A program made the position numbers and the translations under genes. From NCBI GenBank assembly GCA_004431415.1, contig QPMI01000531.1:1-64000 (forward strand): a stretch of 64,000 nucleotides of DNA, given 5' to 3'. The notes beneath the pieces were generated by a model. It searched no databases. It was not told the origin of the DNA and saw only the letters and a program-made list of their open reading frames with translations. Source of the stretch: Cyanophora paradoxa CCMP329. Taxonomy: Eukaryota; Plantae; Glaucophyta. This document shows, piece after piece, positions 532-24,564 of this stretch (its first letter is position 1; every line of letters begins with the position of its first letter).

Positions 532-920
532 ATGTCGATTCAGAGAAAGCCCCAGCGACCGCTGAAGTTAAGCCCAAGAAGCGCTACCAATTGACCCAGA
601 GCAGAAAGAAGCGAGAACCAGAAATACCGCGAGCGTACACAGTGATCCGAGTTCAGAGCCAAAGAGCTGGCGATCGCAGAGCAAGATACGAGAGATCAAA
701 GATAAATACCTCGAGAAAATGGCGGTCAGAAACAGCAAAAATACGAAATCGATGCGGAGTTCAGAGAGAAAAAGAAGGCCCAATCGCTGGCATACTACCA
801 CAGAAAGCATGCAGAGAAGTTGGCCGCTATTGCAGCGGAGTAGCTCCTGAGAAAGCAGAGCCAGCAATCCTTCGAAACCGGAAGACCCCGCAAGTACAAC
901 AAGGAATCGCAATGATCGTG
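532..920 (+). pseudogene. Small basic viral protein, frameshifted
   Basis: ATG at 532 follows the same upstream motif as other viral genes. K/R-rich reading (e.g. KAQSLAYYHRKHAEKL) is broken across frames. End approximate. Confidence 0.35.
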
Positions 921-1098
921 AGAGACAGACGATATGTATATTTTTATGTACAGGACGATTATCGGTTTTGTATCGTGGGAGAAAATTTGATTTGTCCGTG
1001 GGACCAAAAAATGACTTAAGGAAAAGCCACATAGGTTAATTAACGAAAGGGGAATTTACCCTATCTGGCAAAAATATTTTCTTGGCATAAAGTAAACA

Positions 1099-5186: not shown

Positions 5187-5324
5187 TTATAGGATGGCAT
5201 CGAAAATAGTGAGGCGAGGGCTGGGATGAGACCGAAACGACCCTGCTCCCCATTCCGATCCCAGATACAGAGAGAGTAGAAGGCAGAATTAGTAAAAGAG
5301 AAGCAAAGGTAAATGTAGTAGGGG

Positions 5325-6496
5325 ATGTCCCTTTTAAAACCGTGAGTCCGGCTTCGAATAAAATAGTTAGGCGAATGTACGATCCTAAAACAGGTTACAA
5401 GCATCCCATACGATCTATCAGGAGCTGAAGAAAGAGGATCCGAGTGTTACTTATAACGAGGTCAAAGAGGTTGCAGAAAAGCAAGAGTTTATGCAGATTA
5501 ACAAGAAGCCACCCCAGCATCGCAGTCCACATTCATTCCAATCACAGCTCCACCCTGGACCTACCAGGCCGATCTGATATTCTATTTATCTTACGGAAAG
5601 TACAATGCGGGGTACATTGCGGTACTCACTCTTATTGAGATCACGAGCAGGAGGGCTTACGCTAAGAAATTAAAGAATAAAGAGGGAGTCAGTGTTGCGA
5701 CTGCATTTAGAGAGGTATTGGGTGAGCTTCCCGCTCCAATGAGGGTGTTAGAGACTGATTTGGGTTCCGAGTTTAAAGCGAAAGAGTTCCAGGCAGTGAT
5801 CCAGGAGTTTGGAATCGAGCATAGGTTTAAACAGGCTGGGATCACACGAGTTTAGGCATCATGAATCGATTCCATTTGACCCTCAAAACGATGATCAATA
5901 ACTACTGCATCGCTTTCAACACAGTCAAGTTTATGGATAAGCTAGAGGACTTTGTTCTGAATTATAATTCCAGTGTTAATAGGACTATAGGTATGCGACC
6001 AATAGATGTTAGGTTAGAGGATATGGCTCGCATTCGCAGTTTCATTTTATCGAAAAGAAAGCAATTGTTGATGATATATTCGAGAAATTCAAGCCCGGCC
6101 TGTTCGTTCGAGTCTTGCTGCCTAGATCTAAGTTTGACAAGGGGCCACTCAGAGATACAGTCGAGAGGTCTACAAGATCGCAGGAAGGGCCGGGAATGGA
6201 ATCCAGGTCGTAGATGCCAGGGTGTTCCTTTGAATCGAATCTTCAAGCCTCATGAGCTGCAGATCATATCGGAAGTTGAAGCAATCGTTGAGCCTTCCGC
6301 AAGTACAGTGGATACAGTGAGGCAGGAGGCCGCAGCAATTAGACAGATCCACAGAGAGGGCATAGATCCGGCGGAATCAGTGCCAAAAGGCAGCTTGATC
6401 GAGGATAGGGTCCAGAGAACGAAGAGGGTTTCAAGGGAGCTAGCGAATCTAAGAGTAGCCGGAACCGAGAAATTAGCCGGTGGGCAGAGGCTGTAG
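5325..6496 (+). CDS. Retroviral-like (rve) Polinton-type integrase, frameshifted
   Basis: N-terminal YDPKTGY; YQADLIF (first Asp); LTLIEITSRRAYAKKLKNK; LETDLGSEF (second Asp); LGIMNRFHLTLK; YNSSVNRTIGMRPIDV. Confidence 0.88.
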
Positions 6497-6578
6497 CATC
6501 CTATGATAAGGCTCCAGCTATAAGGGCTAGTACTAGGATCCGAACCAGGTAAAATTTTATATATTCGTATAGTAGGAA

Positions 6579-6923
6579 ATGGAGAAAATCTATATTGAGG
6601 TCCCTTTTGAACAAAAGATGAAGCTAAAGCCCTTGGGGCTAAATGGGATATGAAGCATAAATGCTGGTATGTAACTGAGCCGGAACATAAGCTTCTATCT
6701 ACCTATAGTACCGTGGCCGTTTCGGAATTAATGCGCAAAAATAAAAAATTTATTTGAAAATCCGTTCGAGGATCGCGAGGAGGCTAAGAAGGTGGAGCCA
6801 AGTGGGATCCTGATCATAAGCTATGGTTCGTATCGGTATTGATAACCCATTAACACTGACCTACGATAAAGTACAAGTGGGGGCGTGGCTCGTCAAGTCG
6901 GAACGAAGCAAGTCGCAATTTAG
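6579..6923 (+). CDS. Tandem DUF5710-like domain protein, frameshifted
   Basis: Two copies of the motif: IYIEVPFEQKDEAKALGAKWDMKHKCWYV and YLKxPFEDREEAKKxGAKWDPDHKLWFV (homopolymer indels corrected by eye). End approximate. Confidence 0.7.
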
Positions 6924-7489
6924 TAGTAGCTCACGTTACTAGCTGCCAAAACGCAAAGACTGCGAATCGAACTACGTGCAGTATACCGCTGTAATCCTGA
7001 TGCAATGCGGAGTACGGAGCAGTTTACAGCTTCTTTAGTTCGTTTGTCTATCATTAGATATCGCCCCGATTAGGGAGGGGGTGCTTCGGACTTGTGACAA
7101 GGCTAGCTAGTGAGCTAGCGCAAGCGCCCAGCGCTAGCGCTTTCGAATCAGGTCGACATGTAATATATCAATGTGATCGGCGCATCTTGCAGAACACGAA
7201 TGTATACCTCGCTCAACTTGAGGCGCCGATTGTAATTTCGGGGACAATCAAATCATTTTTTGGTCAGGAGGTCCAGTCCAAAAAACTCAGCCTCGACTTG
7301 CTGTCCCAAAAACTATCGTCAAGCCGGACGTGAAGCGGCTCTGAAGCGCCGTCTTTAAAACTTGGTACCCGCATAGTTACCGGTGGACACCCCGTCAACG
7401 TTGATATTAAAAATGTGAGTTGGCTAGAATTCTTAAAACTGAGTTTTGATCTCAGAATGCAGGCAGAATTTCTTATTATTTGTCTTTTT

Positions 7490-8215
7490 TATGAAATAGG
7501 TGATTATAATGGGGTTCATAAATGAATTTTCGCCTACAAAATGGCTTAATTTAAATAACATTTGAATTTAAAAACTTTGGAAGCTTCTCAGAAGCCCGAC
7601 AAAATTACGAAAACCTTCAAAAACCGGCTGCGCTTCCTGTGAACTGGTGGGTCGACGTCATCTGTCAGCTCAGGCCGCCAAGTGGCTTTCGAATTCGATC
7701 TTAATTATAATTAACACGACTGATAAACTGATAGGATATTAGGTATAATTATCCAAACTTAATATTATTATGTCCCTAATTTATGCAAACATGGGGTACA
7801 TAAATGTGCTTTTGGCTGCAACACTGGTTTTTTTAGAATTACAAATAAATTTAAAAGCTTTGGAAGCTTCTCAGAAGCCCAACAGAATTATTAGAATTAT
7901 AAAACCGGCTGCGCTTCCTATGAACTGGGGGGGTGGACTTCAACTGCCAGCTCAGGCCGGCCAGTGGCTTTCGAACTTCGGAATTCGATCTTAATTATAA
8001 TTACCACGACTGATGAAGTGAGAGGATATAAAGTATAATTATACAAACTTTCTATTATTATGTCGATCACGTTGCCTTTTATGTAAAGATGGGGTACTTT
8101 AATGCAATTTTGCCCTACATCGGCCGCAAGATATCAACTTCTTTTAATAAAATATAGTTTTCAGACATTCGAAGCTTCTTAGAAGCCCAGCAAAATTCTG
8201 GAACTTCAAAAAAAC
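7490..8215. repeat. ~285-300-bp diverged tandem repeat, about 2.5 copies
   Basis: ATGGGGT recurs at 7509, 7792 and 8089. GAAGCTTCT(C/T)AGAAGCCC recurs at ~7580, 7863 and 8171. ACCGGCTGCGCTTCCT...GAATTCGATCTTAATTATAATTA occurs in the first two units. Confidence 0.85.
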
Positions 8216-8353
8216 CAACTGGCAAGGTTGGCGAAAAGCAACCCCTACTAGGCTAGCATGCGCAGGCAGCGCAGTACGTACAGTCGGTCACTACTACAGT
8301 GTCGACATCAGTCACTCTGAGTCCTGAGTCCTGACTCCTGAGGTCCGACGGTC

Positions 8354-9808
8354 ATGCTTTCAGAGGCAAGTACTAGTGCATCTGCTACCAGCCGCAAACC
8401 GGGACGCCCGCGCAAGTACGCTTCGGAAGACGAGAGGCTGCAAGCGAAGAGAATGCAGAAGGCTGCAAGGCGCGGGAACGGTATCCTGAACGGGGCGGAG
8501 CTATCAGTATTCGCCTTCGGTTCGTCCGCATGCGCAGGCGAGCGCTCGCTTGCCAGCTCCCGTTCTGACTCCTGCCGCTAGATCATCACGACGGCGATGG
8601 GGGCTTGAATGCTGACCTTGGTCAGCTAGCGATCGACGATGCAGCGGATCCGGAGCTTGAGCAAGTTGCAGCTGGCGACGGTACGTACGCGGCTCGTACT
8701 ACTACCGTAGTACGGTACGCTTGCCAAATGCAGTGCTGACTCCGCCGCGGCGCGCATGCAGCTGGGAGCAGTTCTGCGCCAGTTGTCAACGTTGGTGGCT
8801 CGCAGGCAGGCGGTTCAAGCTCCTCGCAATCGCAACAGGGCAATGGTGCGAGAGCGTGATTGTACATGTGCAGCATGCATGTGCTAATTTGCATGTGCAT
8901 ACGCAGTTCATGTACAACGAGGCGCCGCGCCTTTCTGGATCCAGAAGATCTCGATAAAGATGACGACGATGAACCTTTCAATGCCGCGCCCGCGGTTGTG
9001 AATGCCGCTAACTTGCCAAACGACGTCGAGTACGTATACTAGCCTCTCGGTTCCGATTGCTGTATATTTATGCTCACTGATCCATGGCACCGGGCATGCG
9101 CAGAGTCCTCAAGCAACGGGTCATGCAGGCTGAGGCAGCAGCGCGAAGAGCGCATGAAGGCAAGCGGAAAGCCGAGGCGGATGCAGCTGCATACCTAGAG
9201 ACTTTCAGGGCATCCGAGCTTCTACCTATCATTGAAAAACAGGCGCGTACGCTTTTCTCCTGCACTGTTTATGCATTGCTTATTAATAATGCTGCAAACG
9301 GCAGTGTCATGATGCCAACTGCGCACTCGCTGGCAGCATTGATATGGGTGGCCGATCGACTTCACTTATCCCATTCATCAAGAATGCGGTTCTGCTGCAT
9401 GATCGGGTCTGTTCGTATATATATATACATATACATGTTGCTTCGCTCTCTCAATCTTGCTACTGCATGCGCAGAAGAACAAGGCTCTCGTCGACCACGG
9501 CGAAAAACCAAAGCCCCTACCCTCGCTCTACGCAAGTTTGTGAAGTGGATCAGCAACGACGGACATATCGAGGTTCGCAGATTGATAATTAATTCTCATG
9601 CAACTGCATCATGATCTCGCTCCATTATTAGTGGTGGTACTGGATCAGCGGCTCGCCTTCGGAGCCAATCGCATTCACTGACGTAGATGTCACTCCGGTG
9701 GGAAGCGAAGCTGGTGATCTCCCTCCACAAATGCCAGCTCCTCGTCGCTCAGTCCGTTCTAAGAAGGCTGCTGCGACCTCGTCGTACAGGATTCTTAATG
9801 TTGTTTAG
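8354..9808 (+). CDS. Multi-exon AT-hook protein of unknown function within the viral block
   Basis: KPGRPRKY AT-hook in exon 1. About seven GT/GC...(GC)AG introns of ~60-90 nt, several with CTGAC/CTAAT-like branch points, separate coding-like exons (DPEDLDKDDDDEPF; VLKQRVMQAEAAARRAHEGKRKAEADAAAY). Exon model approximate. Confidence 0.55.
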
Positions 9809-10181
9809 ATGAAACTGAATGCTTTAGATATAGATATCGCATTTATATACATATATATAGCCTGCATTACATAGCCGGCGCTTAGTTGCTAGCTAATCGT
9901 TTTCGCTTAGATCTACTGTACTGCATATAGCTATTCGCCTACTATACTAAATACGCTTTCTGTTGCGTAATTATATAACAGAGTATTCTTTTATTCGAGT
10001 CATATGTGATTCGATGATACCGTAATACAATCTCTCCTTTTTACATTATTTTTACAGTAAAACCACAGGGAGGGGGTCATGGGTAAAGAGAGAAAATGTG
10101 ATTTATCAATAAAGTCGATAGATATATATGAGAGGCATAGGTAGGGGGTCATGGTTTTTGATCGAGGGTTGATGAAAAGTG

Positions 10182-10233
10182 AGCAATTTACGATTCCTAT
10201 CGGGCATTGGTAAGGAATCGATCGTAAATTGCT
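10182..10233. other. Imperfect inverted repeat near the junction with truncated MCP copy 1
   Basis: AGCAATTTACGAT(TCCT)...(AGGAATCG)ATCGTAAATTGCT. Confidence 0.7.
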
Positions 10234-10300
10234 TTGATTATCGATGAGGTCTATTAATGCGATGCGGGGTTTTAACTGCGAGGTTCACTGCAAACCGACC

Positions 10301-11243
10301 TAGCAGCTCGAAACAAACCCTGATATTGGCTTATTGCTGATGTCTAGAGTACGATTATTGTGCATGATCTCAAACGAATCGATTTTCAGCGCATTCCCGT
10401 TGCCAGCAAATGAATTGTGGTTGCGAGTGCCCAGGTGATTTGCATTTCGCACGGTCATCAGGATCGCGTGCACAAGGCCGCTGACGTTGGCAAGGGAGAT
10501 TTCGACTGCATTCCCCGCGTCGTCAGTCTTTAACTGCCTTGAGCGCTTTGAAATAATCTCAGTGAAAGGAATTCGAATACCACCGCTCTCGTTTGCAGAT
10601 TTAAGCATAGACTCAGCCTCTTCGCTAGGGATATTCACGAACTGGCAAACCAGGGCACAATCCGTTAGAGTTGCAACAGCACTAGCGACAGTTCCAACCA
10701 CGCCAGCCGAACGGAAGTCAATTTCGACGGTGGGCATGTCAGCCAGTGCGAGCAGCGGGAAGTACGAATTGTCCCAGAGCTGGGAGGGATCTTTAGTACG
10801 TACTCGCGACTCGCATCGAGAATCTCAAGAGCCGCGTCCTTTCCAAAGCCGTAGCTGCTAGCAAAAGCCTGGGCGGATGCAACGCTATTATCGATGAGCG
10901 CGTTCACAGTAAGCCAGTCTCCGGGGATCACCATCTTGAAGGATCCATGAACAAAGCGCACGTTTTCAATAAATGCACCTGCGCCATTCGGCAGCACCGA
11001 GGCGGCCGCTCCGCCAGCGACGCTGACCTTAAAGTATAGCGAGACACCGTTTAAAAGCTGCTTGCGCGGAAGGTCGAAAGCGGCAGTCTGCGCGAAGCCG
11101 TACGAGTTGCCTCGCGGACGGATCGTTTCAAGGAAAGGCTTGAACTTGGGGCTGACACCGACAGTGAGACCTGGGGATAGATAAAGCTCGCTTGAACCTT
11201 TGGTAGTGAGGAGCTCCTTTAGAGTTGTTCCTGCTTGCGCCAT
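10301..11243 (-). pseudogene. Major capsid protein copy 1 (3'-truncated after GFVSSC; frameshift ~10785)
   Basis: Near-identical to 20635-21863 but homology stops at 10301. N-terminal GFAQTAAFDLPRKQLLNGVSLYFKV resembles a DJR MCP first strand, and the intact copy sits between penton and ATPase. Confidence 0.75.
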
Positions 11244-11259
11244 TTGCTATTATAGACCA

Positions 11260-11269
11260 GAAAATTTTC
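11260..11269. promoter_or_regulatory. Palindrome GAAAATTTTC in the 44-bp divergent MCP/penton intergenic (also at 21880-21889)
   Basis: Lies 16 and 18 nt from the two ATGs and supplies the TTTTC motif seen upstream of other viral ATGs on both strands. Confidence 0.55.
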
Positions 11270-11287
11270 ATGCATATTGTTGTAAAG

Positions 11288-12166
11288 ATGAAGCTCCGCG
11301 TAAATGTCGATTCTAGGGACCGTTTCGAAGGCACGTCCTCAAATTTCAAGATCAATCTCCCAAGGCCCCTCGTTAATGTGAAGTCGGTGCGAGTCGATTC
11401 GCTAGAGCTCTTCCATAACATGTTCAACCTGTCAACACAAGCCGCAATTATCACCGGCACCCTTGATCCCTCTGGCGTTGAGAAAACGCGTGCTAATGCT
11501 TTCAAGCCCGGAGTCTATACGCCAACCTCCCTTGCAAACTATCTAAGTACGCTGCTTAAAACTCAGCAGTATAGTTACGGTGGAACTACTTATCAGCGCA
11601 AGTTCGTCGTTCAATTTGAAGAGATCTCAATGCGGCTTAGGTTCCTGTCCGAAGCGGATTTTATTTTGAGTTTCACATCGGCCGAACTAGCGAACCTGCT
11701 CGGGTTTGCGAAGACTCTCAGTGACCTTTCCAGTGAGCTTGACACACCTGAGACAATCGATGGCGTGCAATATTCGTACGAGCTGTTCAGCGATATGCCA
11801 GTTGATCTACTTTATCACACGTATTTGTTCCTGTACATTCAGCAGATCAAAGGCTCGATCTTGACACTTAACCCCTATACAACGGGCTCGATCGCAAAGA
11901 TTCACATCGACTCAAAATTCGGGGAGCTCATCAAGTTCACATCTGAGGATCGTGTTCCCGTCACAGGCTTCGATCGAAACGCTGAGCTGTCTGAACTTGA
12001 CATATCGCTGCGCTATCATAATGGAACAGACGCTGTCACAAACACGGAGTTCTCGTTCGTGCTAGAGTTCGATATCGAGGATGTCTCTTACACGTCTGCT
12101 GCTGCTAAATCCGCAATCAAGAATGCAGCCAGCGAGTACGTCCCCTTCGACAGATCGTTCGCATAA
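11288..12166 (+). CDS. Minor capsid (penton) protein, copy 1, intact
   Basis: MKLRVNVDSRDRFEGTSSNFKINLPRPLVNVKSVRVDSLEL and C-terminal LSELDISLRYHNG...EFSFVLEFD, the typical penton pattern of Polinton-like and large DNA viruses. Confidence 0.85.
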   Translation: MKLRVNVDSRDRFEGTSSNFKINLPRPLVNVKSVRVDSLELFHNMFNLSTQAAIITGTLDPSGVEKTRANAFKPGVYTPTSLANYLSTLLKTQQYSYGGTTYQRKFVVQFEEISMRLRFLSEADFILSFTSAELANLLGFAKTLSDLSSELDTPETIDGVQYSYELFSDMPVDLLYHTYLFLYIQQIKGSILTLNPYTTGSIAKIHIDSKFGELIKFTSEDRVPVTGFDRNAELSELDISLRYHNGTDAVTNTEFSFVLEFDIEDVSYTSAAAKSAIKNAASEYVPFDRSFA

Positions 12167-12191
12167 GTTTTTTCCCACTACTAGTTAAAAG

Positions 12192-12866
12192 ATGTCGACA
12201 GACAAGCAGTCTCGGCTGCGCACTCCGCGAAAGAAGTCGACAGACATGCAGTCTCGGCTGCGCACTCCGCAGCTTGAAGTCGCTTCCAGCCCTACTAAGA
12301 AGAATCACATCGAGTTCTTGAGTGGTGATACTAGTGCTTACCCGCTAGTCCGTCGCGCTGGTGGCGGTGAGGGTGCATCCAACGACTATGCTCTTACCGC
12401 CGACGAGAACGCTATTCTTGATAAGATCCCGAATTCGCGGACTAAGAAGACCAAGACTAGCAAACTGAAGGATACTGACGATGGGCCGCTGTACATCTCA
12501 GAGACGGCTAATCGTAGCAGGTATTTCATTAAAACTGTGACCGGTCTTAAAACAGTTTCAAAGAAGCGAGCTAGTGATCTTATAGCTGGCATCGCGGCTG
12601 AGACTATGATGGAGAACAAGGTTTTAAATGAACCTATTACTAAGACCAAGATTGATAAGAAGGTCTCTCCTCCTGCAGCTGCTGTTCCTGCTAAGACGAT
12701 CGTTGCGATCCCCGAGGTCGATGAGAATGCTAGCGAATTACCCGTAGCTAACGCATCAATCCTGCGCATCGCCTCTAGCAGTGCTGATCCTGTCGGGCCG
12801 GCGATCGAGTACAAGCCAATGCTGAGCGGCTTCACTAAGCTAGGGCTCCGGCATCGCTGGGAGTGA
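12192..12866 (+). CDS. Hypothetical basic viral protein (224 aa), copy 1
   Basis: Open ORF with upstream viral motif and duplicated STDxQSRLRTP. Conserved in copy 2 (22810-23464). Confidence 0.7.
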   Translation: MSTDKQSRLRTPRKKSTDMQSRLRTPQLEVASSPTKKNHIEFLSGDTSAYPLVRRAGGGEGASNDYALTADENAILDKIPNSRTKKTKTSKLKDTDDGPLYISETANRSRYFIKTVTGLKTVSKKRASDLIAGIAAETMMENKVLNEPITKTKIDKKVSPPAAAVPAKTIVAIPEVDENASELPVANASILRIASSSADPVGPAIEYKPMLSGFTKLGLRHRWE

Positions 12867-13457
12867 CCGCTCCATAGCTGACTACATGTAAACGCATACG
12901 CAAATACATTTATATTCGATTTATAGTACTGCTAATAACACTACAGTAGGCGATCTGACAAGGCACAACGTTTTGACCCCGTAAACCGTGGTTTCTCGCG
13001 ACAGAGATCGGATTGGACTGAGCCGCTGTGTATGCTATAGTTTCATGATCTATAATTACGAAATCCGCAGCAAGCGCGTTCAGACGCCGCAGCGTTGATG
13101 AGATCTTTAATCGTCGGGTTTGACGATTAAGATGTATGGCGGCTTGACCTCAGCACAGAAGCGCGCCAGGCGCCGGCCAAAGCGTACGCATGCTAAGTAT
13201 GATGCGGAAGAACGATAAAGCAAGTCTCCAGCGCTGGGCACCGCAGCAGTTCCGAGCTTGTGAACGTTTCGCCCTGAGACGTTCACCCTAGCCGGCTCGA
13301 GCTTGACGGCTAAATCTCCGGCTTGGTGTTCGGCTTGAAGCTTGAGGTTAGACTGCGGTTAGACCGTGGTTCGGCTGCGGTTAGAGCGGTGTCGTCGGCG
13401 GTTATACGCGTGTGGTTAGACGCCTTTCGTACGTGTGAGCGCGGTTAGCACGGTTAG

Positions 13458-14136
13458 ATGAACGAAAGGACAAGTTTCTCAGAAGCTTCCTCGACTTCGG
13501 CCGACTTGGCAGGAGCCCCAGAAGCTGCAGCTAGCACGTCCACGGTGGAACGCCAGTACAAGACATCACCCGCGCAGCGCGCAGCTGTAGCCAGGTATCG
13601 CGCGACAGAGGCAGGCAAAGTGACGAGAGAGCGCGAGAAGGAGAGCCGCCGCACTCGAGCGCGGAAAGATAAAGCTATGCCATCCAGCGACAAGCAGCTT
13701 GCAACATCGCGCGCAGCCGTACCTGCAGGCCCGCGCATTCAGAACCAACTCCAGGCGCATCACGTCCAGGCACAGATCATAGCCTTCGAGCAGCTCTTCT
13801 CGGAGTGGTTCCCTGCAGCAGCATCGTACTTCAACGATGTCTTAGCACTCAAGCAATGTCTTTGGAACAAGGGCTGCAAGGTTCGCCCGGCGGCCTCCGC
13901 TCGCTTGACGCATGCACATGGACAGTGGCTGATTGCTTGCAACTTTGCAGAGCATGGATGAATACAACATCATGATGGAGCGCCTGGAAAGCACCATGGG
14001 CTCGTTCAAGCAAGCGCGCGCGTCTCTTCTTACCTACCTTCAACAGGCCCAGCTGCAGCAGCAGGCGCAGGTGCAGGCGCAGGTGCAGGCGCAGGTGCAG
14101 GCGCAGGTGCAGGCGGAGGCGCATGCGCAGGCCTAG
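13458..14136 (+). CDS. Two-exon basic/Gln-rich protein (~202 aa), possible transcription regulator
   Basis: Phase-0 intron 13881-13950 (GTTCGC...GCTGAT...TTTGCAG) joins ORF 13458 in frame to ORF 13933-14136. Basic helix (AVARYRATEAGKVTREREKESRRTRARK) and (QAQV)n tail. Confidence 0.65.
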
Positions 14137-14352
14137 GCGCAGGCGCAGGCTTAGCTATAGCCGCAGTTAACACCTAGATAGACCTCAAGCTAGCTGGTCG
14201 GCGCGCCCGCGCACGCGCTGAGGCTTCGCTGAGGTTTTTGGCTGCGCAGGGAAGACGAACATGCGAGCCCGAGCTGGATTGCGTTTCGGCAGTTAGCTTC
14301 TCTGTACACATCAATCACGTCTAGCTTATTCCGATAGAGAGCTCTAGGAGGT

Positions 14353-14617
14353 CTCTGCAGACCGGCGCGTTTGGGGGCCCGCCTCAATTCACTGCTATAT
14401 CTTTTGCAAGATCGCTTGGTCTAGACGTTAGATATTACCTAGCGGTTGCTGGATGGAGGGGAGGTAGACCAGAGGGAGAGGAGGGCAGTAGACATAGCGG
14501 AGGGGTGGAAGAGAATGAGGGCTGGGAAGGCGCTGGAGTGGGTGAGTGAGGGGTGGGTTTGGGGGTTGAGGGTGGCAAAGAGGGCGGGCCCACCCCGATG
14601 GGGGTACTCTCATTTTT
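14353..14617. repeat. Terminal sequence of capsid-module element, copy A
   Basis: Direct, diverged repeat of 24111-24379 (CTCTGCAGACC...ACTGCTATATCTTTTGCAAGATCG...GGTAGACCAGAGGGAGAG...CTCTCATTTTT). Immediately followed by a 5'-truncated fibre gene. Confidence 0.85.
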
Positions 14618-15298
14618 AGCGAATCAATTAAATGTGAATGGGACAAGTTCATTTACAGGATTGATGACCTTCAATGGTGGACTCTTGGGAAATGTTAGCG
14701 TTGAAACTCGAAAAGCTACAACAAGAGTTAATGCACCTGAGATGGATAATGGGACAGATGCAAATGTGAATTATAAACGAAACGGAAATACCATTTTCAC
14801 TCTCGAAAAGACAATAACAGATCTGAAAGCAATCACAATCCCGGAAAATAGTGGTCTGAAACGATCCTATTGTCCAAGAATGAATATATCAAGACAAGCT
14901 CCTGGTTTGACAGGGTCCATAATACTTACAGCTGGAACACCCTTTAACTTTATAAATGGAGCTTATCTTGTAAACAATGAAGGAAACTTTCATCCACAAA
15001 ATTTACAGCTCCTGTTTCCGGAGTATATAGGGTGTTCTTTGCATGTATGAGAGCTGGCACAACCTCTTATACTCATATTGCTACCAGCATTTATTTAAAT
15101 GGAAATCCTACAACCATCCAAACAAGGGTTTCAATGCCGTCCGCAGGGATTTCTAATACATTTGTAACTCCAATTTCATATGAAATTTTACTTTCTGTTA
15201 TTGAAGGTGACTCCTTTGATATACGCAATTCTTCTGGAGCCAGTCTTCAATTTGATATCAGATACTATTTTTCTTGTTATCTTGTTACTGCTACATAA
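14616..15298 (+). pseudogene. Fibre protein 1 with C1q-like head, 5'-truncated
   Basis: ANQLNVNGTSSFTG shaft segment matches fibre 2; FTAPVSGVY C1q signature after a frameshift at ~14995; ends YFSCYLV. Confidence 0.7.
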
Positions 15299-15320
15299 TA
15301 TTATCTGTATAATATAAAGA

Positions 15321-16336
15321 ATGTCCACACAAATAGCAGTTCCTGTTTTCTGTTATGCCGCCCCAAAAATACATCAACTGAACCATACAGTAACAGATGC
15401 AACACCTGGGTTTATTTGCACAGAAACAACAGGGCTGATTCGTTTTCACAAAATTCTGTGATTAGATGCAAAGAAATTCGATGTGATCGCAATGGGGAAA
15501 AATAAGAACCACAGGACTCATTGTATCTAACAAGAACCAAGTCCAATCAGGTCAAATTGTTTCAGATACAGCAATTTATGACAATGTGGGAGGGTTCACC
15601 ACACCAAAATAGTTACTTTTGATAATACAATTAATAATGCTGCTCTTTCAGTTAGAAGTGGAGGGGCATATATTGGAGATGGGCAAGGATTGATGGAACT
15701 CTAACAGCCAATCAAGTAAACATTACAGGAACAAGCACATTTACAGGTTCAGTAACAGCCAATGGAGGCATAAGTATTCCAGAAACAACACAATCGATAA
15801 TAACAGCAACTTCCAAGGTGGTCACACCTGAAATCGATACAGGAGCAAATGTGAATCTTGTTTTGAAACGCAACAGTGATATTATGGCTACTCTGGAAGC
15901 CAATCGCTTGACAATCAACACAAATTGTTATTTAAAATATGACTATCAGCCTCGATTTTCTGTTCAACTTAATTATCCTCATGTTGCTACCAGTGAAACT
16001 GCTCTTATCAATTGGGAGTAGTGTTTGTGAATAATAGGGGGCATTCAATGTCAGTAATGGAAGGTTCACTGCTCCTGTTGCAGGTCATTACAGATTTACA
16101 GCATATACCCATTCAACTTCAAGTAGTCCAATAAGTCTCTCTTTAAAAGTAAATGACCAAGACCCAGGGGTCAAAGTATCATAACACAAAATGACTCAAC
16201 TCTTACGAATAAACCGCTTTACATTAGTGTAATTCTTAACATTGCTATGGGTGAGTATATAACACTTGTAACAAATAATGGGGGTAGCTACACAAATCGA
16301 ACAACATTCACAGGTGAACTTTTGAGTGTCACATAA
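15321..16336 (+). CDS. Fibre protein 2 with C1q-like head (frameshifted)
   Basis: Shared N-domain NSVIRCKEIRCD and ALSVRSGGAYIGDG; EIDTGANVNL; QPRFSV...FNVSNGRFTAPVAGHYRF...TTFTGELL. Confidence 0.72.
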
Positions 16337-16358
16337 ATTTTCTCTTTATAAAGTAGGA

Positions 16359-16625
16359 ATGTCGAATATCTACCAAGTAGTTCTCTCAGATACTGAGAAG
16401 CTGGGAATGGAATTCTGTGCAGCTTCTGTTCAGGATTGGATTGATAATGTGGTTCATAACAGGGCAAGAATTGCAATTGATGATATTGTTCAGAAAGAGA
16501 TCCAGTCTTGCATTGCATCAGGAATTCAAATACCAACCTCAAAGGAAGCCATCGTTTTACAGGCATTCCAAAGGGGAACTGTAAAGAAAGGTATCGAATA
16601 TAATTATGTCACAGAAGAACAATGA
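16359..16625 (+). CDS. Small phage-type fibre-associated (putative assembly/chaperone) protein, 88 aa
   Basis: LSDTEKLGMEFCAASVQDWIDNVVHNRARIAIDDIV...GIQIPTSKEAIVLQAFQRGTVK matches, from recall, small proteins encoded next to C1q-headed tail fibres in aquatic phages. Confidence 0.6.
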   Translation: MSNIYQVVLSDTEKLGMEFCAASVQDWIDNVVHNRARIAIDDIVQKEIQSCIASGIQIPTSKEAIVLQAFQRGTVKKGIEYNYVTEEQ

Positions 16626-16660
16626 ACATTATTTTTCTTTCCTTCTTAGTAAAAGAAGCA

Positions 16661-17526
16661 ATGGGTGAATATAATCGAGTTCAACTGCCTATATATTCCC
16701 TTGGATCCCTGCAATGCATTTTCGCCAGCATGAAGTAAATGATGAGGTTCGTGGTTTAGAATCCACAGAGAGACCCAATTCCAATGGCAACTCCTTTGAT
16801 AAAAATTCGATTATTCGAGTTAAAGAGCTGAGAGCTGATAAGAATTCTGGTGTGGTTAAAACAACTCGACTTCTTGTCACAAATGCTAACTTTTTCCAGC
16901 CTACCAATGGAGGTCCTGATGCTTACAGTGTTGATCTGAAAGCCCTTGATTTCGATAAGAATTCTGCTGCTGTTACTGTGAGATCAGGAGGAGCATTTAT
17001 TGGGGGTGGCTGTCGAATTTCAGGTCAGCTTTCATCCTCAATTTCGTATAATGATGTCCCAGATACTCTAGAGCAAAATGTAGAAGACCCCCAACGAATT
17101 CGATTATATACTCCTGTTGCACAGCAGCCATTAATTCAATTTTACATTGGATATACTGTTACTCTTGAAAACTCGGAATTAATTGAAGGAACCAAAAGAG
17201 TACTGAGAGGTCTTGCGATTCCATCTGCAATGCTTTCCCTTTGTAGAGCCAACAACAATCAAGTAGGTCATAGATACTATTTCAATGTTCAGGGATATAA
17301 TCATTTCGGTTATGGCTACTGTGTTTATAATAATAATTTCACCTTTGACTTGTTTGTTACTGATATTGGGTTATATACTATAACTCTTATCGGTTTGAGA
17401 ACAGATATAGCCGCTGTATCAGCTCTTAGAGGTGTAACTCCTGATACTCTTTCAGTTACAGGGTTTTACATGGAGCCAGATGTAATTGATGACCCAACCC
17501 ATAAAAGATATATCCCTTTAATGTAA
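16661..17526 (+). CDS. Fibre paralogue 3 (one early frameshift)
   Basis: NSIIRVKELRADKNSGVVKTTRLLVTNANF and AVTVRSGGAFIGGG; non-C1q C-terminal beta domain ending LIGLRTD. Confidence 0.7.
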
Positions 17527-17527
17527 A

Positions 17528-18378
17528 ATGGCTGAGCAACCCCACTTGAACGAATTATTACACCTCAACTATCATTAGCTGCCCCAGCAAACCATGTTTT
17601 ACAGCATGCTACCTTTGATGATGTAGAGGGTCTCCAATCCACAGAGGTCCAACCTACAATGAACACCTTTGGTTCCACCCACAAACTGAGATTACAGGAA
17701 CTCAGATGTGATAAAAATAATGGAATAGTTAAGACAACTAAGCTACTTGTCACAAATGCAAACTTTTCTGCTCATTATGGAGACCCAGATAGCTATGGAG
17801 ATCCTCTGTCTACTTATTCTTTTGAATCTAGGTCGGGAGCTATTAACTGCAAATCGGGGGGAGCATATATTGGGGATGGTCTTAGGGTTGGTGGGGCTGT
17901 TGGAGCGCCTTTATTTGTGAATGATCAACCCAATCCCATTGATCCCAACACAAGAATTCGAACCTATGTCCCCAGCATGAATGCCCCCTATATAATAAAA
18001 ATATTCCCCATTGTTGTAAATGAACAAACAGCAGTAGTAGACTCTCTTGTTGAAATTGGTGACCACTACAAGGTAGTTGTGGATATCCCACCAGATGTTT
18101 ATGCTCTTTGTCAAGTAGAGGGTGGAACTCCTAATTTTGCTGTTGTGATCACCCCATATGATAATTTCGGAATTGCTTATCATGGAGTCAATTTTGGTTT
18201 GGAAGATTATCAGTTTCTGGTTAGAGCCACCAAGTTTGGTATCTACAAGTGTGTATTATATGCTGAGAGAACCGATTTTATTGCAAAGCAGAATACCTAT
18301 GCTGAATACTATGGACAAATCGATATTTCCCCATTTTTGGGCAGGATACTGCTCCATAAGAATATTGGTTATATATAG
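17528..18378 (+). CDS. Fibre paralogue 4 (one early frameshift)
   Basis: LRLQELRCDKNNGIVKTTKLLVTNANF and AINCKSGGAYIGDGLRVGG; C-domain VDIPPDVYALC...VITPYDNFG...LYAERTD, similar to paralogue 3. Confidence 0.7.
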
Positions 18379-18381
18379 AGT

Positions 18382-18654
18382 ATGGATAGTAAAACAAAAA
18401 AGTTTATTGATGCTGCTATGACAGTTCATGGTAAAGATAAATTCGATTACAGTGAGACACATTACATCAAAGCTCAAGAGAAAGTATCTGTGAGATGTTT
18501 GCAGTGTAACAAGGTGATCCTTACATATCCCTTTAATCATGTGAAGGGATCAGGTTGTAGGGAATGCAACAAAAAGCATTCTCAGGCTTACAGGAAAAGG
18601 GCTACTTCATCAATCAAAGTAGAGTACAGGGATATTTGCATTAGGTTCGATTAG
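18382..18654 (+). CDS. DUF723/CapR-like zinc-ribbon protein
   Basis: FIDAAMTVHGKDKFDYSETHY...KVSVRCLQC...PFNHVKGSGCREC, the DNA-binding repeat of viral homing/Vsr-like nucleases, here without a nuclease domain. Confidence 0.75.
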   Translation: MDSKTKKFIDAAMTVHGKDKFDYSETHYIKAQEKVSVRCLQCNKVILTYPFNHVKGSGCRECNKKHSQAYRKRATSSIKVEYRDICIRFD

Positions 18655-18683
18655 GATTAATTAATTTTTCTAAGGTATTCTTA

Positions 18684-19082
18684 ATGGAGACTAAATACAG
18701 AGGCTTTCATGTAATGCTTGATTACAAGGCTAAAACAGCTATAGCAACAGGTTATGAGCATGTTAGCTTTCTTGGTAATTGGATTATGAGAACCCTTGAA
18801 CAAGCAGTATTGAGACAAGGTATTAGGATTGTTCATAAGCATTGTGAGATATTTGATGGCAAACTATCACCTCCTGGTTTTGCATTGGTTCTGCTATTAG
18901 ATGAAAGCCATTGCACAGCTCATTGTTATTCCAATGAAGGCATGTTAGCAATTGATATATTCAGTTGTGGTAAAGAAGCTCAGCATAAAACACAAGCAGT
19001 TGCAGATGAGATCGATAAAACAATGAATTTCTTAACATTTGAGAAGACTGAGAGACATAAACATGATAGATTCCCGTTTTGA
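18684..19082 (+). CDS. speD: S-adenosylmethionine decarboxylase proenzyme, short prokaryotic type
   Basis: Intact 132-aa ORF with G.H..LD at the N-terminus, GFALVLLLDESHCTAHCY (ES self-cleavage site) and AIDIFSCG. Confidence 0.9.
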   Translation: METKYRGFHVMLDYKAKTAIATGYEHVSFLGNWIMRTLEQAVLRQGIRIVHKHCEIFDGKLSPPGFALVLLLDESHCTAHCYSNEGMLAIDIFSCGKEAQHKTQAVADEIDKTMNFLTFEKTERHKHDRFPF

Positions 19083-19359
19083 TGGGTTTCTATAATGATA
19101 AACAGGGTAATTTACCTTTTTTATTACAATGGCAATCGTTAAAAAAGGATATAATATATCCTTTCCTACAATAGCTTTCTACAATGATTTTCTTTCTACA
19201 GTAGCTTTTGTTACAATAGAATTCTACTGTATGATGTAGCCGAAATATGAATGCACCCTACATTAAGCAATGTCAAGTATTTCGAATACTATTCGATTTC
19301 CTTACAATAACACTCAGCATCTCCCTTGATTCCCCTATTATATTATATTTATATTTAAG

Positions 19360-20067
19360 TGGACTCAAGGTTGACTCATATTAATCGTAAAGTAGTAAAA
19401 GTATATGGATTTTGTTACGAATTCAATGCAAGGGTTGACTAAGTGGGTTGAGTTGACTCAAATTTCACAGGAAATATTTGGGACCTAAAGTTTTCTAAAA
19501 AGGATTTCAAAAAATGTGTCAACTCCCCCCACTTAGTCAACCCTGACCATAAACAGTAAGGATTTGGGCTAACATGTATCACAAAGTGAACATATTGAGT
19601 CCACTTAGAAGATCCACTTTTGAAATCCAAGTTGATTTTGCTTGAAATTTCAAAGTTGATCTAAAAGTGAGTCCACCCTGATTGATTATGGTAACAAAGT
19701 TGACTAAGTTGACTAAGTTGAGTCATCTTAAGAAATTCAAGGAGACTAAGAGTTCAAATTGTTTATGAAAAGTGAGTCAACTTAGACCACTTATGGTAAC
19801 AAACTTAAATATTTAATTGATTTAATCGGAAAAGAACATGATTTAATCGAATTTATTGATATAATTCCGATTAGATTCATTTAGGATTCAATTAAGATCA
19901 ATCGAAGTTATTGATATAATTCCGATTAACTACAATTAAGATACAATATCGATTAATCGAGTTTATCGATATAACATCGATTAAATTAATTGAAAATGCA
20001 TTTAAAAATATGAAAATTCATGTGAAAATTCAAATAAATTAATCGATTTTATTGATATAACATCGAA
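19360..20067. repeat. Iteron-like subterminal repeats of the AT-rich fibre/speD element
   Basis: Many GTTGACT(A/C)A / TGAGTC(A/C)A motifs in both orientations (19360-19790). Four ~30-bp units ATTTAATCGA.TTTAT(T/C)GATATAA(TTC/CAT)CGA (~19840-20067). Confidence 0.75.
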
Positions 20068-20069
20068 TC

Positions 20070-20142
20070 ACACATATGAATATTCATATTTTAATCCTGA
20101 GGCGGAACGCCGAGGGATTAAAATATGAATATTCATATGTGT
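20070..20142. other. Perfect 28-bp inverted repeat with internal GGCG-GAA-CGCC mini-hairpin; probable element terminus
   Basis: ACACATATGAATATTCATATTTTAATCC (20070-20097) is the exact reverse complement of 20115-20142. The ATPase frame runs into it and loses homology. Confidence 0.9.
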
Positions 20143-20634
20143 AGTGTTGAACTCTTTAACATTGCTCAAAATCGACGAAAAGCAAACGTACTCACAGTTC
20201 CGCCGAATCGTCGGACTGATGCCACAAAGACGTTGAGTCGTTATGAAAAGGGTGGTGTTGTAATGACGGCCAGAAGTAAATAGCTTTTGCATGAGTCTGT
20301 CACTGTGGACATTTACTAGGTCATTGTCAAGTAAATCGTCTAAAACAATTGCAATCTTGCGATCATCATTTTTGCGTCTTCTTTCTTTTTGTCGTTCTAG
20401 CAGCGCTTCAACCAAAACTGGATCCCATTCTTCCTGGATATTACTTGGTCGTGTTGTATCATTCCATTGCCCAGTAAATGCGGTCGTACTGAAGACGTAA
20501 ATATCGTCTAACTGTGGCGCTACAGCATTTAGCACGTGTTTTACGTAGGTGCTCTTGCCCGAGTTTGTTGGACCGACAAACAAGAACCGTTTAGGCAGTT
20601 TTATTTCTGTAGGATCAAACAGTTTGATATCCAT
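20143..20634 (-). CDS. A32/FtsK-HerA-like genome packaging ATPase, 3'-truncated
   Basis: Walker A GPTNSGKST, Walker B IAIVLDDLL, FTSGRHYNTTLFITTQ and ISPTIRRNCEY. Confidence 0.92.
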
Positions 20635-21863
20635 CTAGAAGTTACTTACCTTTAGAGTTGACATTTGATACGAGTTAATTACGAGAACATTGTGGCGCAG
20701 GACGTGGAAGTCAACAACTGCTGGCGCTGCGTTTGTGCAGCCGGTCACAGTTAGCGAGCAGTAGCTGCTGCTGGAATTAAAGAAGTCTGTGTAGCCGAGG
20801 ACAGCGTTATGCAGTGAGTCTTTGCCAGATTTCGAAAGCACAATCCCATAGACATTTCCGTCCTCGAAGCCAAGAGCTGAATTGCCAGTGGTTGCACCGC
20901 GGTATTGAGTTGGAATGTGATAGCACGATGATACAAACCCAGAGATTGGCTTATTGCTGATGTCGAGAGTTCGGTTGTTGTGCATGATCTCAAACGAATC
21001 GATTTTCAGCGCATTTCCGTTGCCAGCAAATGAATTGTGATTGCGAGTGCCCAGGTGATTCGCATTACGCACTGTCATCAGGATCGCGTGCACAAGGCCG
21101 CTGACGTTGGCAAGGGAGATTTCGACTGCATTCCCCGCGTCGTCAGTCTTTAACTGCCTCGAGCGCTTTGAAATAATCTCGGTGAAAGGAATTCGAATAC
21201 CACCGCTCTCGTTTGCAGATTTAAGCATAGACTCAGCCTCTTCGCTAGGGATATTCACGAACTGGCAAACCAGGGCACAATCCGTTAGAGTTGCAACAGC
21301 ACTAGCGACAGTTCCAACCACCGAAGCCGAACGGAAGTCAATCTCGACGGTGGGCATGTCAGCCAGTGCGAGGAGCGGGAAGTATGAATTGTCCCAGAGC
21401 TGGAGGGGATCTTTAGCACATACTCGCGACTGGCATCGAGAATCTCAAGAGCAGCGTCCTTTCCAAAGCCGTAGCTGCTAGCAAAAGCCTGGGCGGATGC
21501 AACGCTATTATCGATGAGCGCGTTCACAGTAAGCCAGTCTCCTGGGATCACCATCTTGAAGGATCCATGAACAAAGCGCACGTTTTCAATAAATGCACCT
21601 GCGCCATTCGGCAGCACTGAGGCGGCCGCTCCGCCAGCGACGCTGACCTTAAAGTATAGCGAGACACCGTTTAGAAGTTGCTTGCGCGGAAGGTCGAAAG
21701 CGGCAGTCTGCGCGAAGCCGTACGAGTTGCCTCGCGGACGGATCGTTTCAAGGAAAGGCTTGAACTTGGGGCTGACACCGACAGTGAGACCCGGGGATAG
21801 ATAAAGCTCGCTTGAACCTTTGGTAGTGAGGAGCTCCTTTAGAGTTGTTCCTGCTTGCGCCAT
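20635..21863 (-). CDS. Major capsid protein copy 2, full length (~410 aa; one frameshift ~21405)
   Basis: Two ORFs join as ...EYVLKIP[L]QLWDNSYFPLLALADMPTVEIDF. Beta-rich, ends HNVLVI, and lies between penton and ATPase. Confidence 0.8.
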
Positions 21864-21907
21864 TTGCTATTATAGACCAGAAAATTTTCATGCATATTGT
21901 TGTAAAG

Positions 21908-22784
21908 ATGAAGCTCCGCGTAAATGTCGATTCTAGGGACCGGTTCGAAGGCACGTCCTCGAATTTCAAGATCAATCTCCCAAGGCCCTCGTTAATGTAA
22001 AGTCGGTGCGAGTTGATTCGCTAGAACTGTTTCATAACATGTTCAACCTGTCCACACAAGCCGCAATTATCACCGGCACCCTTGATCCCTCTGGCGTTGA
22101 GAAAACACGTGCCAACACTTTCAAGCCCGGAGTCTATACGCCAACCTCCCTTGCAAACTATCTAAGCACGCTTCTTAAAACCCAGCAGTATAGTTACGGT
22201 GGAACTACTTATCAGCGCAAGTTCGTCGTTCAGTTCGAAGAGATCTCAATGCGGCTTAGGTTCCTGTGTGAAGCGGACTTTATTTTGAGCTTCACATCGG
22301 CCGAACTAGCGAACCTGCTCGGGTTTGCGAAGACTCTCAGTGACCTTTCCAGTGAGCTTGACACACCTGAGACAATCGATGGCGTACAATATTCGTACGA
22401 GCTGTTCAGCGATATGCCAGTTGATCTACTTTATCACACGTATTTGTTCCTGTACATTCAGCAGATCAAAGGCTCGATCTTGACACTTAACCCTATACAA
22501 CGGGCTCGATCGCAAAGATTCACATCGACTCAAAATTCGGGGAGCTCATCAAGTTCACATCTGAGGATCGTGTTCCCGTCACAGGCTTCGATCGAAACGC
22601 TGAGCTGTCTGAACTTGACATATCGCTGCGCTATCATAATGGAACAGACGCTGTCACAAACACGGAGTTCTCGTTCGTGCTAGAGTTCGATATCGAGGAT
22701 GTCTCTTACACGTCTGCTGCTGCTAAATCCGCAATCAAGAATGCAGCCAGCGAGTACGTCCCCTTCGACAGATCGTTCGCATAA
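21908..22784 (+). CDS. Minor capsid (penton) protein, copy 2 (two homopolymer frameshifts)
   Basis: Near-identical to 11288-12166; lacks one C in two C-runs. Confidence 0.85.
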
Positions 22785-22809
22785 GTTTTTTCCCACTACT
22801 AGTTAAAAG

Positions 22810-23464
22810 ATGTCGACAGACAAGCAGTCTCGGCTGCGCACTCCGCGAAAGAAGTCGACAGACATGCAGTCTTGGCTGCGCACTTCCAGCCCTACTAAGA
22901 AGAATCACATCGAGTTCTTGAGTGGTGATACTGATGCTTACCCGCTAGCCCGTCGCGCTGGTGGCGGTGAGGGTGCATCCAACGACTATGCTCTTACCGC
23001 CGATGAGAACGCTATTCTTGATAAGATCCCGAATTCTCGGACTAAGAAGACCAAGACTAGCAAGCTAAGGATACCGACGATGGGCCGCTGTACATCTCAG
23101 AGACGGCTAATCGTAGCAGGTATTTCATTAAAACTGTGACCGGTCTTAAAACAGTTTCAAAGAAGCGAGCTAGTGATCTTATAGCTGGCATCGCGGCTGA
23201 GACTAAGATGGAGAACAAGATTTTAAATGAACCGATCACGAAGACAAAGGTCGATAAGAAGGTTGCCCCTCCTGCATCTGCTGTTCCTGCTAAGACGATT
23301 GTTGCGATCCCGAGGTCGATGAGAATGCTAGCGAGCTGCCTGTAGCTAACGCATCGATCCTGCGCATCGCCTCTAGCAGTGCTGATCCTGTCGGGCCGGC
23401 GATCGAGTACAAGCCAATGCTGAGCGGCTTCACTAAGCTAGGGCTCCGGCATCGCTGGGAGTGA
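22810..23464 (+). CDS. Hypothetical basic viral protein, copy 2 (frameshifted)
   Basis: Homologous to 12192-12866, with an 18-nt in-frame deletion and 1-nt losses. Confidence 0.7.
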
Positions 23465-23580
23465 ATGCCTGTAACGATGCCTGTAACGATTGGCTTGACG
23501 GCTTGGCTCGGGCTTGGTCTCCGGGATCCGGCTTGGCACAGGGCTTGTCTCGGGCTTGTCTCCGGCTTGTCTCCGGCTAG

Positions 23581-23870
23581 CTATCAGCGCACTATCAGCG
23601 CACTATCAGCGCACTATCAGCGCACTATCACTTTTATGCCAGCGCATAGAAGCTCGTCTACATTACTATACTTTTATGCCAGCGCATAGAAGCTCGTCTA
23701 CATTACTATACTTTTATGCCAGCGCATAGAAGCTCGTCTACATTACTATACTTTTATGCCAGCGCATAGAAGCTCGTCTACATTACTATACTTTTATGCC
23801 AGCGCATAGAAGCTCGTCTACATTACTATACTTTTATGCCAGCGCATAGAAGCTCGTCTACATTACTATA
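23581..23870. repeat. 11-bp x~4.5 and 40-bp x6 perfect tandem repeats
   Basis: CTATCAGCGCA at 23581-23630; CTTTTATGCCAGCGCATAGAAGCTCGTCTACATTACTATA at 23631-23870. Confidence 0.97.
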
Positions 23871-24110
23871 CTTTCTGTCCAAATCTTCAACATCTCTCGA
23901 TCTTTTCGTTTTTTAGGACTTCCTGTCCAAATCTTCAACATTGCTACTGGCGCTATCATCCACACAGTATTATTGACTAACTAGAACCTAAACTCGCATA
24001 TGCAATCAGCTTCGATTATATAGTTTTATCGTCTAGCTAGAACCTGGAAACCTCTCCGCTATTTAGATAGGAAGAACACAGTATTAACGCCTAGCTGCTG
24101 ATTAAGCTAT

Positions 24111-24379
24111 CTCTGCAGACCGTCGCGTTGGGGGCCCGTCTCAAATCACTGCTATATCTTTTGCAAGATCGATTGGAGTAGACGTTAGATACTACCTAGT
24201 GGTTGCTGGATGGAAGGGGAGGTAGACCAGAGGGAGAGTAGGACGGTAGACGTAGCGGAAGGGTTGGCGAGAGTGATGGCTGGGAAGACGCTGGATTGGG
24301 TGGGTTGGGGTGGGTTCGGAGAGGTGAGGGTGGTGAAGAGGGGTGGGCCACAGAATCAGGTCCTCTCTCATTTTTTTTT
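24111..24379. repeat. Terminal sequence of capsid-module element, copy C
   Basis: Direct, diverged repeat of 14353-14617. Confidence 0.85.
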
Positions 24380-24564
24380 GAAGCCTGATTCAAGCCTCAT
24401 TCAGCCTGATCCAAGCCTGATTCAAGCCTGTTTCAGCCTGTTTCAAATCAGGCTGAATCCTCCGAAATAAGGCTGAGCCTGTTTCGCCCAGCCTGTCTCA
24501 GCCTTATTTAAGCCTGCTTTAAATCAGGCTGAAACAGGCTCCGGCGACCCCCTTTTTACTAGTG
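24380..24564. mobile_element. End of a CACTA (EnSpm) DNA transposon
   Basis: Ends ...CCCCCTTTTTACTAGTG (reverse complement CACTAGTAAAAAGGGGG), preceded by dense AGCCT(G)/(C)AGGCT subterminal repeats in both orientations. GC-rich DNA starts right after. Confidence 0.75.

Follow-up and report, generated by a model that had tools for sequence, protein, structure and literature searches.

Arginine decarboxylases of the SpeD family (SpeDA) have been described from Poseidonales, Gimesia, Solirubrobacter, Nannochloropsis and Tribonema (PMC10407285), and the protein studied here has in common with them the fold, the Ser/His/Cys residues, the sequence motif and the side of the tree on which it falls. 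The known SpeDA enzymes covered by that paper are cellular and mostly encoded together with speB and speY, whereas our reading frame belongs to a virus-like element, lacks a partner gene and groups with the genes of giant viruses. A speB-speDA-speY cluster is present in Poseidonales and marine group II/III. The enzymes of these archaea are active on arginine and not on ornithine or lysine, close homologs from Nannochloropsis and Tribonema are likewise arginine-only, and the archaeal SpeDA proteins give no speD rescue (PMC10407285). SpeY enzymes take agmatine directly (PMC13625781).

Class 1b SpeD enzymes from bacteria, from phages and from Algavirales, such as those of T. maritima, S-PM2 and HaV01 (PMC9992855), resemble our protein in fold and in predicted self-cleavage. 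They are set apart from it by an identity of only 22% to the solved structures and by a long branch, and our protein has neither a proline three positions after the catalytic histidine (His+3) nor a spermidine synthase encoded nearby. Polyamine enzymes are known from both phages and giant viruses, and those class 1b genes of eukaryotic viruses that have been tested encode true AdoMet decarboxylases, i.e. AdoMetDCs (PMC9992855). Viral conversion of arginine to agmatine, which resembles the likely role of our enzyme, is described in the same paper for two proteins. One is the SpeDA of pelagiphage HTVC201P, a phage enzyme of separate origin, and the other is the ADC of chlorovirus PBCV-1, which is PLP-dependent, unrelated to our enzyme and accompanied by its own agmatine pathway.

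For the carrier, which we call element B (14618-20142), the closest described systems are endogenous virophages as well as Polinton-like viruses (PLVs). Like B, these are low in GC, multi-copy and nested, with common upstream motifs and in some cases palindromic ends. Such ends are found in the endogenous virophages and one PLV subtype of Halocafeteria (bioRxiv 10.64898/2026.07.28.741278), for which nested insertions are likewise described, and upstream motifs common to several genes are described for Cafeteria virophages. Unlike B, which is known from its 5.5-kb right part, the endogenous virophages and PLVs are presented in the main texts examined without mention of a decarboxylase; supplementary tables may list such a gene. 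The main text of a PLV survey gives sugar, lipid, redox and nucleotide genes and no polyamine genes. Within the literature covered, with subscription journals mostly outside its scope, no SpeD-family gene was reported in virophages or Polinton-like viruses, and no SpeDA in eukaryotic viruses. What is new at this locus is the setting; the enzyme family itself is known.

Our preferred reading, to which we assign a probability of about 60%, is that the locus encodes an arginine-to-agmatine SpeD homolog, self-cleaving at Glu74-Ser75, on a multi-copy virophage- or Polinton-like element, and that the gene came from, or is shared with, a giant virus.

The decarboxylase gene and its substrate

The window is the whole stretch of DNA that was analysed, with a length of 64,000 nucleotides. 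On its forward strand, positions 18684-19082 form an uninterrupted frame of 132 codons running from ATG to TGA, and in shuffles of segment B any frame of at least 132 codons was found in 3 of 300 cases. The encoded protein matches PF02675 (E 1.3e-11, 45.2 bits against a cut-off of 25) and carries ESH at residues 74-76 and DIFSCG at residues 91-96. By alignment, S63, H68 and C83 of the T. maritima enzyme correspond to its S75, H80 and C95. The roles of the three T. maritima residues in self-processing have been described (PMC10407285), and cleavage of our protein is predicted between E74 and S75. An AlphaFold model based on an 11-row alignment reached a pLDDT of 88 and a pTM of 0.84, and the five best PDB matches of this model in a Foldseek search were all class 1b AdoMetDCs (22% identity, E 1e-7, TM 0.66-0.67). 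The region is a real and intact gene for a pyruvoyl-type decarboxylase of the class 1b SpeD superfamily. A host cellular gene was considered and ruled out, as GC3 in the frame is far below that of host eS19 (0.27 versus 0.87) and the frame is positioned inside B.

The first-pass annotation had described the gene as intact, without indels and complete in its signature residues, in agreement with these data, and had named it a prokaryote-type AdoMet decarboxylase. The prokaryotic label is right for the fold only, the nearest relatives being giant-virus and eukaryote-like proteins. The name AdoMet decarboxylase is not confirmed, because the score against the AdoMetDC model TIGR03330 (45.5 bits) lies under the cut-off of 75.65; in the tree the protein is also placed on the side opposite to 10 of 10 SpeD references.

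A GTDB scan gave 392 relatives. The best 80 of these 392 were all from genomes of marine archaea, under the titles Poseidoniales, Thalassarchaeaceae, Euryarchaeota, Methanobacteriota or Thermoplasmatota, and have the same common motif as our protein, SPPGF...DESH..AHCYS. Local identity to marine archaeal proteins was 40-58%. Using tblastn on the best 80 loci, a deoxyhypusine-synthase-like gene was found adjacent or fused in 78, the remaining two loci stopping at contig edges, and an agmatinase-like gene was found nearby in 34. In a Pfam check of 11 archaeal loci, DS was adjacent or fused in all 11 and the Arginase family was upstream in nine. Five archaeal genomes, all incomplete, contained one PF02675 gene apiece, and a search for spermidine synthase in these five found none; neither was a spermidine synthase found beside any scanned clade member. 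The gene order of the relatives is the speB-speDA-speY arrangement and indicates the arginine decarboxylase (SpeDA) clade of Li et al. 2023 (PMC10407285).

Trees were calculated with FastTree on 173 rows and with IQ-TREE on 72 rows hand-chosen from those 173, and the two are concordant on the split between SpeD and SpeDA. In the IQ-TREE tree a long branch (100/98) parts our protein and the archaeal proteins from all ten SpeD references, a small set of three validated enzymes (S-PM2, phiYS40 and P2559S; PMC9992855) and seven annotated ones; two of the ten sit on very long branches. The validated algal-virus AdoMetDCs are not part of this tree, nor are the assayed SpeDA proteins DAC51064, AIF02979, XP_005856029 and KAG5182568, and the link to the latter is by taxon and gene order. 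Our protein belongs to a group of 31 rows (94/89), which are for the most part eukaryote-like proteins, and N-terminal membrane or targeting extensions occur in several of them. Phylogeny, proposed earlier as a check of the AdoMetDC assignment, places the class 1b homolog on the SpeDA side of the 100/98 branch and not with SpeD.

One proline is named as diagnostic by Li et al. (PMC10407285), which we infer to be the one at His+3. This proline is present in 9 of 10 SpeD references versus none of 214 clade members, our protein included (the 214 being those rows among 228 with a readable motif). Where nine of the ten references have Pro and nine of the ten have Glu, our protein has HCYSN. The rule is not absolute, because the phiYS40 enzyme, a validated AdoMetDC, has no proline at His+3. 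A second candidate proline, located before GF, is present in our protein and in 195 of the 214 clade members. The proline evidence is ambiguous, and the substrate call was therefore based on clade and gene neighbours, from which arginine is the probable substrate. Ornithine decarboxylase activity was judged unlikely, as the SpeDC signature (Gln, Thr, Phe and Tyr, at positions inferred from Fig. S5) is absent from our protein, which has LLDESH, HCY and LAID. Of the two new functions that the first-pass annotation had offered as an option, arginine is thus favoured by clade and gene order, and ornithine is not, its signature being absent.

Other architectures were observed among the relatives. 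Fusions of the decarboxylase with a deoxyhypusine-synthase-like part occur at L013:1244-2551, in L038, L046 and L090 and in the proteins P0041, P0051 and P0057, and were confirmed by Pfam in four archaeal loci. By inspection, P0051 seems to be fused to an agmatinase, and P0041 seems to be a fusion of three parts. Two tandem SpeD-like domains are found in P0026 and P0029, and in P0026 KSH replaces ESH in both. Additionally, the eukaryote-like homologs P0033, P0035 and P0039 have an N-terminal membrane region, which is a PQ-loop according to the source for P0033. Cationic amino acid transporters are among the PQ-loop proteins.

Element B and its copies

Element B begins mid-gene. Positions 14618-16330 (+) hold broken fibre-like genes with internal repeats, a label given by resemblance as no profile matched, and in other copies of B the sequence continues leftward (eight X6 contigs with unaligned letters before 14618). 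An 88-aa protein at 16359-16625 (+) has 46-51% identity to small proteins beside fibre-like genes in the viral contigs L178 and L179. The gene at 17528-18378 (+) encodes an unnamed virus-like protein with 62-64% identity to P0200 and P0201, and a paralog of it (35%) is located at 16661-17526 (+). In this copy both frames are broken, the former near 17539 and 18312, and the paralog near 16706. The 16714 ORF had no protein match among 960 candidates, and viral-contig searches with the 17659 ORF (one confirmed match) and with its alignment gave no locus. A 90-aa zinc-finger protein at 18382-18654 (+), directly ahead of the decarboxylase, is like those of HNH/endonuclease genes (phrog_681, E 3e-9).

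Downstream of the decarboxylase, an AT-rich subterminal region (19083-20069, 30% GC) contains 9-nt repeats, 55-nt repeats and inverted repeats. The right end of B is a 73-nt palindrome at 20070-20142 with a perfect stem of 29 bp and a folding energy of -31.3 kcal/mol (z -11, 0 of 200 shuffles). At 20142 this end cuts the neighbouring A32 ATPase gene. Virophages of Halocafeteria have palindromic ends that this one resembles.

Within 14618-20142, where B is cut off on the left, no gene for a capsid, penton, packaging ATPase, polymerase or integrase was found; the class of B is inferred because its own hallmark genes are absent from this interval, a virophage- or Polinton-like virus being the likely one. 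In the same 5.5 kb no Nucleocytoviricota core gene was found, although so short an interval makes this a weak test, and no polyamine partner gene either. Relatives of B's seven other ORFs were found among 188 loci for two ORFs only, and for none of the seven in L092-L094, the contigs carrying the closest decarboxylase genes with genomic context.

The composition of B is distinct from that of its surroundings. It has 38% GC, and the CpG ratio is 0.35 (14618-19082) compared to 0.9-1.2 in the neighbouring viral remnants and the host. In the decarboxylase gene the ratio is 0.16, and many of the leftover CpGs of B are in TCGA. GC3 is 0.26-0.38 in B versus 0.42-0.58 in the Polinton-like neighbours, whose CpG ratio is 1.1.

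Fourteen of 24 listed sequencing runs (DNA or unlabelled), all from one organism, contain 0.67-0.72 of the words of B; runs X17-X20, with small shares, are outside the analysis. In two of the fourteen, 1253 and 2522 contigs aligned to 14000-21000, with every identity class represented. The depth of single contigs ranged from about 75 to over 3000, figures from which no copy number was derived. These data point to many divergent, polymorphic copies of B. Contamination, which the first-pass annotation had listed among the findings that would overturn it, was ruled out by this multi-copy family of divergent copies in 14 runs of one organism. The X15 and X16 contigs span 19585 to 20142 and then stop or enter unlike sequence, and the X1 and X6 contigs cover 20143-20602 before entering other sequence. 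The contigs thereby break at 20142/20143 from both sides, and 20142 is therefore a fixed end with differing flanks. Among the contigs shown none bridges 14617/14618 or 20142/20143, so that the exact nesting of B is unconfirmed by reads.

The variant listing comprises 40 of 524 entries. Among these 40, synonymous changes make up four of six in the decarboxylase ORF and all 17 of those in the 17536 frame, and the two that are not silent in the decarboxylase are mild (L61V and A105S). A gene pool under selection would be expected to show such an excess of silent variants. As the listing comprises only 40 of 524 variants and 12 of 49 indels, decayed copies of the decarboxylase may exist. The X15 and X16 contigs, which are RNA by guess only, cover the decarboxylase ORF (e.g. 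18628-19130), and this coverage is a hint of transcription.

A motif scan with shuffles placed AATTTTTCT ahead of the ATG, at 18663-18683 (+), where it is likely the promoter of the decarboxylase. The same motif is found 5' of 16359 and 16661, both in B, and of the capsid-like genes at 11243 and 21863 in element A. Four forward matches were counted in B versus a shuffle mean of 1.0, with 8 of 300 shuffles reaching four, and two in the 39-kb host part. The viral upstream motif noted earlier for the decarboxylase is present and is common to other B genes and to capsid-like genes, with an enrichment in B that is modest. A giant virus could have such a common upstream motif as well.

Origin of the gene and competing explanations

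In a metagenome scan with the decarboxylase protein, the best 80 of 319 relatives were kept. The top three of these 80 are not archaeal; they are SpeDA-clade genes at L092:9998-10384, L093:3656-4045 and L094:1223-1612, with 49-52% identity. Contig L092 contains a gene for the NCLDV major capsid protein (E 9e-64) and others for a D5-like primase-helicase, RNase III, Erv1, mRNA triphosphatase and ABC1 kinase, and the gene order decarboxylase-Erv1-RNase III-D5 is likewise found in L093 and L094. From the gene set, we take the three contigs to be of phycodnavirus type. P0001 (55%) and P0002 (52%), proteins without genomic context, are closer to our protein than L092-L094, and these two, P0027, P0028, L092 and L093 make up its starred clade (98/87). 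Eleven more distant relatives (L001-L011) are located in viral contigs, two of them named as giant-virus genomes. Nine of these eleven contigs were scanned; several have giant-virus-type neighbours, L004 has a phage portal, and no polyamine partner gene was found beside the decarboxylase in any of the nine. In the giant-virus contig L002 (2512-4147) a decarboxylase of the same clade adjoins a zinc-finger repeat gene akin to the one at 18382-18654 (E 6e-9). A direct viral-contig search with the decarboxylase ORF alone gave no locus. Because the nearest relatives with known context are in giant-virus contigs, gene exchange with giant viruses is the simplest reading, and B is likely to have taken the gene from a giant virus or to share it with one. 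The SpeDA-clade genes in giant-virus contigs would be annotated as AdoMetDC and are likely arginine decarboxylases instead.

According to the preferred reading of an arginine decarboxylase on a virophage- or Polinton-like element, the protein would cleave itself at E74-S75, with Ser75 converted to the pyruvoyl cofactor as known for the family, and the enzyme would decarboxylate L-arginine to agmatine rather than act on SAM. The agmatine level would then be raised while the element replicates, host or helper-virus enzymes may convert agmatine to putrescine and further to spermidine or homospermidine, and the resulting polyamines could serve translation and DNA packaging. A bolder version has a hairpin-ended virophage or PLV capture the arginine decarboxylase of its helper, with many intact copies that are transcribed without infection, and with agmatine going to the host or arginine being drained from the giant virus. 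We regard this version as doubtful; if true, the clade would be an unrecognised family of arginine decarboxylases across algal giant viruses. The addition pointed to is a SpeDA-clade arginine decarboxylase in eukaryotic viruses (giant-virus contigs and B), where misannotation as AdoMetDC is to be expected. A likely virophage- or Polinton-like element with an enzyme closest to giant-virus genes would be a marker of helper-satellite gene flow, and if B is of this class, the smallest protist DNA viruses would be added to those with a polyamine metabolism.

The carrier may be of another kind with the same enzyme on it, B being part of a Nucleocytoviricota genome, whether giant or small, or a non-autonomous mobile derivative of one, amplified in the host. 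The phycodnavirus-type context of the nearest relatives with known context, the other clade members in giant-virus contigs and the recurring zinc-finger neighbour in L002 are all compatible with this, as is the difference of B from its Polinton-like neighbours in GC3 and CpG ratio. Hairpin ends are a feature of giant viruses as well. We nevertheless consider it unlikely, as the 5.5 kb holds no giant-virus core gene, as B ends sharply, is joined to different flanks and occurs in many divergent copies, and as relatives of its other seven ORFs (two with relatives among 188 loci) are missing from L092-L094. The first-pass annotation had spoken of a small endogenous virus and had named a giant-virus fragment as the finding that would speak against it. 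An endogenous, multi-copy, virus-like element is what we find, whereas its being a small virus is not established, with no hallmark gene in B; the gene does group with giant-virus genes, and the carrier behaves as a small mobile element.

The enzyme could instead be a true AdoMet decarboxylase, making dcSAM for spermidine or draining SAM against host methylation. Its PF02675 match and class 1b fold suit this role, validated class 1b AdoMetDCs are known from algal giant viruses (PMC9992855), the sequence difference between SpeDA and SpeD is described as little (PMC10407285), and the CpG-poor composition of B may reflect methylation pressure. Against this stand the TIGR03330 score below cut-off, the position of the protein within the speY/speB-tied clade and apart from all ten references, the lack of a spermidine synthase beside the scanned clade members or in the five archaeal genomes, and HCYSN in place of the Pro and Glu of nine in ten references, so that a true AdoMet decarboxylase seems improbable. 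The SAM drain, an idea of the first-pass annotation, is unlikely. A still smaller chance is left for a further shift of substrate in the viral branch, whether to ornithine, to lysine or to some other amino acid, or for a passenger protein that no longer matures. More than one change of substrate is described among phage SpeD homologs (PMC9992855), no downstream agmatine enzyme was found beside the scanned viral copies, and neighbouring genes are broken in this copy of B. The ornithine decarboxylase signature is absent from our protein, however, its frame shows no break, and the variants listed for it are either silent or mild.

Surrounding sequence of the window

Positions 1-24559 are low in GC and form a cluster of decayed Polinton-like sequence, with pieces of an A32 ATPase and of capsid-like, integrase-like and helicase genes. 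Its left part (1-14617) contains integrase-like and SF1 helicase pieces and, at 10310-12866, a copy of 20930-23464 with 96% identity. To the right of B, the Polinton-like remnant A2 (20143-24559) contains the A32 packaging ATPase (PF04665, E 2e-9) that B cuts at 20142, a broken major capsid-like gene, a probable minor capsid gene and terminal repeats. A viral-contig search with the capsid-like ORF of these remnants gave no close relative. Positions 14352-14593 and 24110-24351 are 86% identical, and this pair and the 96% pair belong to two remnants of one Polinton-like element. Repeat arrays with units of 283, 40 and 11 nt are located at 7509-8212, 23590-23909 and 24379-24540, respectively, either within the Polinton-like remnants or at their end.

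The remainder of the window (24560-64000) is host DNA with 67-73% GC and carries eukaryotic genes for eS19, F-box, LMF1, Dus and response regulator proteins. It includes an AT-rich island at 33000-34000 with 37% GC and a CpG ratio of 0.21, which is probably a methylated, decayed repeat.
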